The notes: generated from the letters alone by a model not told the origin. A DNA stretch of 12,010 nt from an uncultured Planctomycetaceae bacterium (GCA_964589725.1 CAZPUJ010000230.1:1-12010), one strand, 5' to 3'. Positions 1 through 9,278 are shown, numbered from the stretch's first letter. Made by a program: numbers and translations.

Positions 1-357
1 CACGCGAGACCGAGAGGACGGGAAATGACCTTCCGAAGAGTGGGTGGGCTGGATCTGTTACCTCAACCCGTTCCAGGCTGGCATCGTCTGGGTTCTTGAA
101 CGGGGCATCAAGATCGGTTGTCGTTCGACAACATCCCGCACAACGTCGTGATGCAGGGTCTGCGGAACGTGGTCGCGGATGGCAACATCCTGAACCTCCA
201 ACCCGCTGGCCGAAGCATTCGAAGGGGTGTTGCTTGGGAGCCCATCGAAAGCGTCGTTCCGCCCATTCGGAATTCTGCGGTGCCAGTTGTGGCCGGTCTC
301 CTGACCGAGCCACCCCGCCCGACCGTAGGTCTCCCCGAACGGTCCAGCTCGGTTCGG

Positions 358-732
358 TCAAATCGGAATGGCGAAGATAATGATTTCACCGTCGGGCACG
401 ACGCGCATTTGTAAGTCGTGTCCCGCCAGCAGAGCCATTCCGATGAGCGGTTCGGTTTCGGCCGCATCGACTTCGATCGTGAGTGGGCGACCGTCCCAGA
501 GAATCGTGAGTTCGAAGATTTGGCTGAACGTCTTGCTGCCATCAGCCAAGTACACGTTCGCGATGCCAACTCGCTTGCCGCCGAATCGCTCGATCACTGC
601 CAGCGGCAAAGTGAGACTGCCACTAACCCCGGTATCGACCACGCCCGAAAAACCAATCGCAGACCGATCGTCGCAAACAATCGCCAAGTCAATCCAACCT
701 TCGAATTCGTCGGTGACAACTCCACGAATCAT
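358..732 (-). CDS. Retropepsin-like (clan AA) aspartic protease, about 124 aa from the coupled ATG at 732. The ORF-track frame is open upstream to 795.
   Basis: The translation contains 'VVDTGVSGSLTLP', the catalytic D-T-G motif of retroviral-type aspartyl proteases, and a downstream flap/'LIGMALLAGHDL' (hydrophobic-hydrophobic-Gly) motif typical of the single-domain retropepsin fold. An internal ATG at 732..730 overlaps the stop of the upstream gene as ATGA (+ strand 729..732 = tcat). An AAGGA ribosome-binding site lies 7 nt upstream of that ATG. The size matches bacterial retropepsin-like proteases. Confidence 0.7.
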   Translation of the reverse strand: MIRGVVTDEFEGWIDLAIVCDDRSAIGFSGVVDTGVSGSLTLPLAVIERFGGKRVGIANVYLADGSKTFSQIFELTILWDGRPLTIEVDAAETEPLIGMALLAGHDLQMRVVPDGEIIIFAIPI

Positions 733-998
733 GCGACCGTCCTTGGCACGCGGCCGATACGGTGGTAGTAGAGGCTCCCAATTCGCACCAGCCAAACCTC
801 CGCGTTGGGTTGCCGGGTTCGCAAATCTCTGACCGCCAAAATTCCATTGGCGGCGACGCTGAAATCACCCGACAGAACGTCGATGGCAACGACTTGGCCT
901 TTGGCGGACGCGACCTGAACTTCGATGGTTTCGCGGTACAACTTGTCGCCGCGCGCAGCGATCTCTTCGGCGGAGAGCGTGACGGCTGTTTGAGACAT
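729..998 (-). CDS. Small (89 aa) hypothetical protein, the conserved-looking partner of the retropepsin-like protease and first gene of a two-gene operon.
   Basis: ATG at 998..996 with a GAGGAG site 9 nt upstream. An in-frame stop lies upstream at 1055..1053. The stop overlaps the start of the protease gene (ATGA). The central motif 'GQVVAIDVLSGDFSV ... VWLVRIGSLYY' resembles, from memory, a small DUF family often found next to retropepsin-like proteases. This was not verified. Confidence 0.55.
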   Translation of the reverse strand: MSQTAVTLSAEEIAARGDKLYRETIEVQVASAKGQVVAIDVLSGDFSVAANGILAVRDLRTRQPNAEVWLVRIGSLYYHRIGRVPRTVA

Positions 999-1132
999 GA
1001 TCGAAGACTCCTCGGAAAAGCGGGCTTCTATGCCACGCAGCAGTGTAACTCGTCAAGCCATCAGGACTGAATCCCGCATTGACGATTTCCGTTACTAGCC
1101 CGGCCAGCAGTGCCTTCAGGCGTTCAGTGGGT

Positions 1133-1176
1133 ACATAAAAGGTGACATAAAAGGTGTCAGACATAAAAGGTGTCAG
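1133..1176. repeat. Three tandem direct repeats ACATAAAAGGTG(TCAG) (12, 16 and 16 nt) containing a TGACA-N7-TGTCA inverted repeat. Candidate operator or iteron upstream of the protease operon.
   Basis: Read directly: 1133-1144 acataaaaggtg, 1145-1160 acataaaaggtgtcag, 1161-1176 acataaaaggtgtcag. tgaca at 1143-1147 and tgtca at 1155-1159 form a 5-bp palindrome. The array is AT-rich in a GC-rich background, 135-180 bp upstream of the start at 998 on the sense side of the minus-strand operon. Confidence 0.8.
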
Positions 1177-1304: not shown

Positions 1305-1508
1305 CTATTTCGCAAAGATACGGTCCTTTAGTTTGAAGACCAGACCCTCCTTGGTCTCGATATCGGTCAGCAGTTGCTTTACTTTCCGCTTCGAGCAGAC
1401 GCGGAGTTTCCAAAAAGCCCGCAGGATGTCGACCAGGTCAAAGACCTCAATGCCCTCGGCCACGCAGAAGTTGCGTGCGCGACGATCGTTGGTGTCGGCC
1501 AGGAACAT
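1305..1508 (-). pseudogene. C-terminal remnant (67 aa) of a DUF3368/PIN-like toxin. The N-terminal catalytic half is missing.
   Basis: The translation 'FLADTNDRRARNFCVAEGIEVFDLVDILRAFWKLRVCSKRKVKQLLTDIETKEGLVFKLKDRI' aligns to the C-terminal DUF3368 segment of PIN-like toxins, which is about 150 aa in full. The pattern is LLxDxxxRRxAxxxGxxVxGxxGxL...G. The same frame has a stop 10 codons upstream (1539-1541), and no other minus frame encodes a PIN N-terminus. Confidence 0.6.
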
Positions 1509-8777: not shown

Positions 8778-9278
8778 TCAAGGGCGGTGATGAGTTTTGG
8801 GAGGTCGCGGTAGCCTTTGATGCGGCGAATTTCTTTTCGACTTTGAGCAGGCCGGCCGCGATGTGTCCAAGCCTCGAGCCCGCAGTTCAGTCAGCAATTC
8901 GGTACAGACCGGCGCGTTCTCGGTCCCTCCCTGACGCAGCCCCAAGATATGTTTGTGGCCGTGTTCGTCGAGTCCCACGGCAAGGATTAGCATCTCGCCC
9001 GCGAAGTCGCTGCCGTCCAGGAACAACGCCACGAAGCGGATCGTGTTCAGGGGGCCAGTCATCAGTTTCTCCAGCTCGTCGGCCGAGGCCCTCACGAAGC
9101 CGCGACTGACGCTGGACTTCTTCACGCCGACTCCCGCGCGCGCCAGATCGAGCACTCCCTCGTAGTCTCGGCACGACACGCCGCGAACCATCTTGGCCAG
9201 TCGCAAAATTGGTATCAATTCCGTCTTCAACAACGGCGTCGGCCGTCGACGTAGAATGAGATGCCAGCAGCATGTCAA
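8778..9278 (-). pseudogene. Internal fragment of an IS256/Mutator-family transposase, covering roughly aa 95-245 of a protein of about 400 aa. A possible further out-of-frame remnant runs down to about 8690.
   Basis: 'GVSCRDYEGVLDLARAGVGVKKSSVSRGF...LEKLMTGPLNTIRFVALFLDGSDFAGEMLILAVGLDEHGHKHILGLRQGGTENAPVCTELLTELRARGLD' follows the Mutator consensus (G.StRdi...vS.s.vSr...PL...v.lDa......A.Gi...G.k.iLG...g..E....W...L..L..RGl). Upstream of the start the frame is closed by TAA (9293-9291), so the N-terminal 90 aa or so are missing. After RGLD at about 8868 the family signature is lost (the DGLKGF / second-Asp region is absent), indicating a deletion or frameshift. Confidence 0.65.

Follow-up and report, generated by a model that had tools for sequence, protein, structure and literature searches.

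A widespread two-gene cassette of a small protein and a predicted retropepsin-like aspartic protease, a tentative candidate for a toxin-antitoxin-like module

The stretch of DNA analyzed here, 12,010 nt from an uncultured Planctomycetaceae bacterium (GCA_964589725.1 CAZPUJ010000230.1:1-12010, hereafter the window), encodes on its minus strand a small protein of 89 aa and, translationally coupled to it, a retropepsin-like aspartic protease of 124 aa. Judged by sequence comparison, the description of this pair as an autonomous, widespread and strictly linked small-protein/retropepsin-like protease cassette is secure. The pair appears to be unstudied so far; no description of such a combination was found in the open-access literature, surveys of toxin-antitoxin (TA) systems included. 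The best reading of its function, which we offer tentatively and place somewhat short of an even chance, is a TA-like module, with the small basic protein holding the acidic protease in check.

The gene for the small partner is located at 729-998 (minus strand; ATG 998-996, TGA 731-729) and the protease gene at 358-732 (minus strand; ATG 732-730). At the coupling junction (729-744, minus strand) an AAGGA sequence (744-740), 7 nt before the protease ATG, is followed by ATGA, in which the start codon at 732-730 overlaps the stop codon at 731-729. An earlier, sequence-only reading of this DNA had described the overlapping pair and the AAGGA site inside the upstream gene, and it was correct in all the coordinates that it gave. 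Both ORFs are real genes and not chance occurrences, as shown by their tens to thousands of homologues and a dN/dS of about 0.1.

Upstream of the small gene, a conserved leader (999-1048, minus strand) contains a GAGGAG sequence (1013-1008) preceding the ATG and a TTACACT sequence (1048-1042). The latter lies 36-50 nt 5' of the start in the window and in the related planctomycete loci (L005-L009 compared), which suggests a candidate -10 element and a cassette carrying its own promoter, although a sigma-70 scan found nothing. Directly 3' of the protease stop codon, two stable GC-rich hairpins (290-353, minus strand), together predicted to fold as RNA at -37.9 kcal/mol (z = -2.8) and lacking a T-run, may form the end of the transcription unit. 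Further upstream, at 135-175 nt 5' of the small gene, there are three perfect direct copies of CACCTTTTATGT (1133-1176, minus strand; 0.01 expected by chance), composed of two 16-nt units (TGACACCTTTTATGTC) and one 12-nt unit. It had been proposed that the pair has its own repeat-bearing upstream region. The repeat itself is real, but it is absent from all 25 related loci compared (0/25) and hence local to this genome and outside the conserved module; a role as a conserved operator was rejected on these grounds.

The linkage of the two genes was assessed from both sides. In a protease-first sample of 80 metagenome loci, 75 of which had enough upstream sequence to be evaluated, the small gene is found directly 5' of the protease gene in 74, the sole exception being a truncated protease remnant. 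An identical 4-nt overlap is present in 58 of 70 metagenome pairs, and it also occurs in cyanobacterial, plasmid and planctomycete loci. For proteases with 31-45% identity to that of the window, the small gene is located upstream in all five loci with readable DNA, in one of which it had been left uncalled in the annotation; in a sixth such locus, known from the gene table alone, the protease gene is preceded by one for 102 aa that overlaps it by 4 nt. Sampling by the small protein gave a protease in 14 of 15 loci: the planctomycete loci all have it immediately 3', and in cyanobacterial chromosomes it is downstream in 4/4. Two small genes with a tandem domain structure are both followed by a protease. 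The genome-contig scan for related loci was carried out with a narrow alignment and comprises 8 loci. Variations on the arrangement exist: two small genes precede one protease in L001 (5675-6644) and L004 (3618-4641). In L083 (184-1157) a second small gene lies 3' of the pair, suggesting that the cassette can be arrayed in tandem.

The two proteins also evolve together. Pairwise identities of the small protein and the protease are correlated with r = 0.95 and have nearly the same mean (46.1 and 45.8%, respectively), a divergence in step. With dN/dS values of about 0.125 (small gene) and about 0.10 (protease gene), purifying selection acts on both. For the protease the pairing is essentially obligate. 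The translationally coupled module proposed from the single sequence is therefore co-conserved in other genomes (74/75 protease-first loci, with the same overlap in 58/70 pairs).

The protease contains a DTG motif at residues 33-35, within the sequence VVDTGVSG (residues 31-38). Across 29 aligned homologues, the most distant with 27% identity, the residues D33 and G35 do not vary and T34 is nearly invariant (at least 90%), and the second retropepsin motif, L96-I97-G98, is conserved with L96 and G98 invariant, which does away with the possibility of a chance DTG. In total 67 homologues were found, several of them named "clan AA aspartic protease" by their sources, and this is also the NCBI name of close homologues. 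A match to a retropepsin-type profile had been anticipated. This held for NCBIfam, where TIGR03698 (clan_AA_DTGF) was matched with E = 1.9e-11, at 44.2 bits against a curated cut-off of 57.35 bits, but not for Pfam, which gave no match; by the curated threshold the window protease belongs to a subfamily related to TIGR03698 and is not a member of it.

An AlphaFold (AF2) model made from the 29-sequence alignment has a pLDDT of 91.7. The matches listed for this model by Foldseek against the PDB are all retropepsins or pepsin-like aspartic protease domains, the best being Rickettsia APRc (5c9b, E = 5.6e-4), the simian foamy virus protease and the XMRV protease, with a TM-score of about 0.6 (0.62-0.64 for XMRV). 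A profile search of the PDB sequences returned weak matches only, to the same retropepsins, indicating that there is no solved structure in this protease subfamily. Based on the conserved motifs and the predicted fold, the downstream gene product is a genuine, single-domain retropepsin-like protein of the clan AA "DTGF" type, with predicted protease activity, in agreement with the single-domain DTG aspartic protease recognized in the sequence-only reading. The enzyme presumably works as a homodimer. By eye, neither a signal peptide nor a membrane-spanning segment is apparent, and the protein is apparently cytoplasmic; it is acidic, with a pI of about 4-5 (range 4.05-6.08). The DTG/ILG motif template of retropepsin-like proteins has been described, and of the COG5550/COG3577 group "little is known" (PMC2642776).

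The small protein has a core, VAIDV..GD.. and W.VRIG, which had looked conserved in the single sequence and is indeed conserved across a large family. Its 46 close homologues derive from planctomycete metagenome bins, whereas the family as a whole comprises 2233 representatives at 50% identity in an exhaustive profile search (E <= 1e-3) and at least 7275 clusters at 90% identity, mostly cyanobacterial, in a word-indexed profile search. The partner thus has homologues by the thousand. Those that carry a name are nearly all "hypothetical protein", except for two with JGI ribosomal-protein names. A small domain of unknown function had been expected for this protein, but the window protein has no match in Pfam, NCBIfam, PADLOC or PHROGs, and 30 diverse family members show no meaningful match to any Pfam family. 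In the same Pfam searches neither the window protein nor the 30 family members revealed a recognizable DNA-binding domain.

Structurally, the small protein is predicted by AF2 (pLDDT 82) to fold as helix(10-29)-strand-strand-helix-strand, with the first two strands forming a beta-hairpin, and to end in a basic, disordered tail (residues 78-89), which carries a conserved h-R-h-G motif; no solved structural relative was found. The family has invariant polar residues, and most of the proteins are neutral to basic (pI usually about 8-10, range 5.8-10.2); about 10% of the members are tandem two-domain copies. Pfam DUF5678 is the closest to a named relative. DUF5678 has a similar "GK.VAI..G" hairpin motif, and the small domain of the metagenomic protein P0119 scores under threshold (E = 4.5e-4, 20.4 bits vs. 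a cut-off of 23.2). In contrast, the window protein does not match DUF5678 and neither does any of the 30 family members at E <= 1, so that membership was rejected.

By blastn, the window resembles related planctomycete loci in 365-1022 only, a region made up of the two genes and the ribosome-binding leader, and the other ORFs of the window have no counterpart in any related locus examined. The limited extent of the similarity and the lack of a common flanking gene argue for cassette behavior. The places where copies are found are diverse: between ffh (SRP54) and rpsP-trmD-rplS (a small gene of the tandem-domain type with its protease, L025 2501-3507), between serA and panE, after thiS, and next to BrnT/BrnA, DUF433, XisI, IS110 or a CARF/Csm6-like gene. 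The insertion in L025 interrupts an otherwise highly conserved housekeeping cluster. The pair is also carried by cyanobacterial megaplasmids, including pCC7120alpha of Nostoc PCC 7120, on which it is annotated as hypothetical protein WP_044523651.1 and "clan AA aspartic protease" WP_010999818.1. On plasmid pNSMS101 of Nostoc sp. MS1 (L108 2483-3120) the pair is flanked by pglZ and a short pglX in a BREX-1 locus; it adjoins an IS630 transposase there, and this BREX locus may be disrupted. Overall, the distribution of the module appears patchy, mostly in cyanobacteria and planctomycetes.

A Pfam scan of 141 flanking small ORFs identified DUF433 (three times), BrnT, BrnA, DUF5615 and ParE-like domains (twice each), as well as PIN_3, HigB, DUF4258, MNT and Unstab_antitox. 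The neighborhoods are often rich in TA genes, which is a qualitative observation with no matched background. The TA-like architecture and the TA-gene neighbors noted for the window are therefore encountered at other loci too. In the window itself, a 154-aa ORF (minus strand, with its ends within 1305-1843) has a UPF0175 antitoxin domain at residues 46-93 (Pfam E = 1.7e-10) and overlaps a 67-aa ORF (1305-1508, minus strand), plausibly, by its position and sequence pattern, the C-terminal part of a UPF0175-partner PIN-like protein (DUF3368/COG2405 type). The region 1305-1843 looks like a TA locus from which the N-terminal part of the toxin has been deleted. Of the decayed PIN/UPF0175 neighbor claimed earlier, the UPF0175 half is confirmed by this domain, but the "PIN remnant" has no significant HMM match in Pfam or NCBIfam. 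A fragment of a Mutator-family transposase (166-aa ORF, 8778-9278, minus strand; model positions 111-224 of 379) is found 8 kb from the pair, and the remaining genes encode SPFH, sigma-54 regulator, oxidoreductase, PQQ propeller and DUF1501 proteins. The surroundings in the window are mainly housekeeping genes and do not constitute a defense island.

Inactivated and orphan copies bear on the question which of the partners is dispensable. Orphan small genes are present in L011, with a C-terminal extension, and on an Oscillatoria plasmid (L107), and no intact orphan protease was found among the loci sampled. Defects are limited to the protease in 12 loci vs. three with defects in the small gene only; with gene length allowed for, this asymmetry has a binomial p = 0.07 (p = 0.19 with a conservative count), and the excess of protease inactivation is a trend that is not statistically significant. 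Intact proteases next to a defective small gene occur in L039, L041 and L099. Independent nonsense mutations in the protease gene (L024, L030/L053, L044, L048, L067, L070, L098) affect Trp, Gln, Glu or Leu codons; four are at Trp (TGG to TGA or TAG), two of which hit the invariant W79. The small gene is intact in six of these seven lineages, and L048 retains a fragment of it only. Stepwise decay of the protease is seen in one lineage (L042, L044, L049; about 1440-1820), where a frameshift near codon 20 came first (L042), L044 adds a nonsense mutation and a deletion in L049 removes the DTG region, all with a full-length small gene. Recoding of the in-frame stops was considered and rejected, as all three stop codons are used and each is one substitution away from the sense codon of its position.

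In the TA-like reading, the small protein would be made first, in at least equal amount, and would bind the protease dimer and thereby hold the protease inactive. Its conserved, basic, extended C-terminal segment (..YHRIGR..) would plausibly occupy the acidic cleft that takes up the substrate, or else the interface of the dimer. If the partner were lost or titrated, the protease would cleave cellular proteins. Binding, inhibition, toxicity and any trigger are what we infer here. The reading is favored by an anatomy as in type II TA modules, including the ATGA overlap, by the near-obligate pairing and lock-step divergence, by the complementary charges of a basic small protein and an acidic protease, and by the cassette-like mobility, plasmid carriage and TA-rich neighbors. 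The direction of the asymmetry in orphans and decay is as expected for a harmless small partner. Tandem small domains and loci with two small genes fit with a partner that would bind a symmetric protease dimer.

Several observations weaken this reading. The intact proteases beside a defective small gene in L039, L041 and L099 are awkward for a potent toxin, and the decay statistics are weak. Antitoxins usually diverge faster than toxins, whereas here the two proteins are conserved to the same degree. The small protein has no recognizable DNA-binding domain, the charges of a basic partner and an acidic effector are opposite to those in most type II pairs, and the surroundings in the window are mainly housekeeping genes. 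We know of no TA family with an aspartic-protease toxin, and no description of one was found in the open-access literature, TA surveys included. That the cassette is the first TA-type module with a retropepsin-like aspartic protease as its effector, held in check by a small protein with a new fold, is a possibility against which the balance leans.

Alternatively, the small protein may be a dedicated substrate of the protease. The small protein, or its tandem form, would then be a precursor that is cut in the tail or the linker, and cleavage would release or activate it, like the processing of a miniature polyprotein. The conserved disordered C-terminal tail with its h-R-h-G motif and the tandem-domain proteins with variable linkers are consistent with such a role, although the embedded ribosome-binding site can explain part of the conservation of the tail. 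Conservation equal to that of the protease, together with invariant polar residues, suggests that the small protein has its own function. P0119 (313 aa), in which two small domains run straight into the protease, would at first sight provide Rosetta-stone evidence, but its junction (..HRGRV\|MIQG..) would be expected from a single-base indel at the ATGA, the sequence is a single metagenomic one, and we have discounted it. Moreover, intact small genes that are orphans or lie beside dead proteases would leave an unprocessed precursor. On balance, we consider it unlikely that the small protein is primarily a substrate.

A two-subunit regulatory or quality-control protease without a toxin, with the small protein as an adaptor, activator or assembly chaperone that the protease would require for its action on cellular targets, would account for the strict linkage, the lock-step divergence and the strong purifying selection on both genes. 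The many copies among housekeeping genes and the three loci with an intact protease and a broken small gene, which are difficult for a toxin, are readily accommodated as well. The non-syntenic cassette contexts, the plasmids and the TA-rich neighbors are nevertheless unusual for a housekeeping complex; the apparently patchy distribution and the frequent inactivation of the protease argue in the same direction. An adaptor-type role is, in our view, unlikely.

Many TA modules defend against phage, and the TA-like architecture raises the possibility of anti-phage abortive infection, in which infection would undo the hold of the small protein on the protease, with death or arrest of the cell as the outcome. 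One copy lies between pglZ and pglX of the BREX-1 locus mentioned above and another adjoins the CARF/Csm6-like gene. In PADLOC-DB v2, however, neither the small protein, the protease nor the fusion P0119 has a match at E <= 1, the window and most of the sampled loci are outside defense islands, and there is no sign of a phage sensor domain. Neither gene was found in the phage collections INPHARED and IMG/VR, and a phage origin of the pair was rejected on that basis. The defense role and neighborhood suggested by the sequence-only reading thus find little in their favor beyond the one related locus within a defense system (BREX), and we regard defense as quite improbable.

Lastly, a programmed -1 frameshift yielding a small-protein/protease fusion as in retroviral Gag-Pro, with the two-gene layout being secondary, is effectively excluded. 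The reading frame of the protease is shifted by -1 from that of the small gene and is open for 44 codons 5' of the ATG in the window (24-60 in many loci), and P0119 and P0159 read as fusions, but no X XXY YYZ slippery heptamer occurs anywhere in the small gene, the open stretch, which is due to the conservation of the overlapping small gene, varies and is only 3-8 codons in L016 and L017, and a conserved ATG and a Shine-Dalgarno sequence belong to the protease gene itself. The metagenomic proteins P0119 and P0159 (113 aa) represent either natural fusions, which would be rare, or indels of 1 nt at the ATGA.

Free-standing retropepsin-like proteases of bacteria and archaea (COG5550/TIGR03698 type) have hitherto been without an assigned function or partner. 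We find that the genes of one large branch of these proteases are nearly always accompanied by that for a specific small protein of equal conservation, which itself represents a family of thousands that has no database model, and a "protease of unknown function" thereby becomes a testable two-component system. Model strains carry the pair, for instance Nostoc PCC 7120 on plasmid alpha. If the TA-like reading is true, the module would define a new class of enzymatic toxin together with a natural proteinaceous inhibitor of a retropepsin. A relative of the retroviral proteases would then be a selfish or stress-activated enzyme for killing or growth arrest in bacteria, which would inform ideas on the origin of retroviral-type proteases. 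If it is a processing or adaptor system instead, it would be a new and widespread cytoplasmic proteolytic module of cyanobacteria and planctomycetes.

Among known proteins, the protease is close to TIGR03698/COG5550 (clan AA, the AF_0612 family), with which it shares a length of about 120-125 aa, the DTG(F) and ILG-type motifs and the retropepsin fold. It differs in its score (44.2 bits, under the 57.35-bit cut-off) and in having V for F after the DTG; no description of a partner gene for the TIGR03698/COG5550 proteases was found in the open-access literature. Fold and catalytic motifs are also shared with Rickettsia APRc, eukaryotic Ddi1 and the retroviral proteases, a group that provided the best matches by structure and weak ones by profile. 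In contrast to APRc, which is membrane-anchored, the window protease is free-standing and apparently cytoplasmic, and unlike Ddi1, which bears ubiquitin-like and UBA domains, it consists of a single domain. Retroviral proteases are excised from polyproteins, whereas this protease is tied to a separate small gene.

As a gene pair, the cassette resembles type II TA modules such as BrnT/BrnA, VapBC and UPF0175-PIN, which are likewise small two-gene operons with the smaller gene upstream and a 4-nt overlap. Common to both are the strict co-occurrence, the movement between contexts and plasmids, the clustering with TA genes, and the occasional orphan "antitoxin" and mutated "toxin" copies. The cassette differs from these modules in that an aspartic protease, not among the known classes of TA toxin, would serve as its effector, and in that the partner is basic, as conserved as the effector and without a recognized DNA-binding fold. 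A second parallel is offered by the ImmR/ImmA and COG2856-Xre pairs of mobile elements, in which the protease acts on its own partner (PMC2701414). As in the cassette described in this work, the gene for a small protein comes first in these pairs and is coupled to that for the protease. The ImmR/ImmA-type pairs combine a zinc metalloprotease with an HTH repressor, where the cassette has an aspartic protease and a partner without a recognizable HTH.
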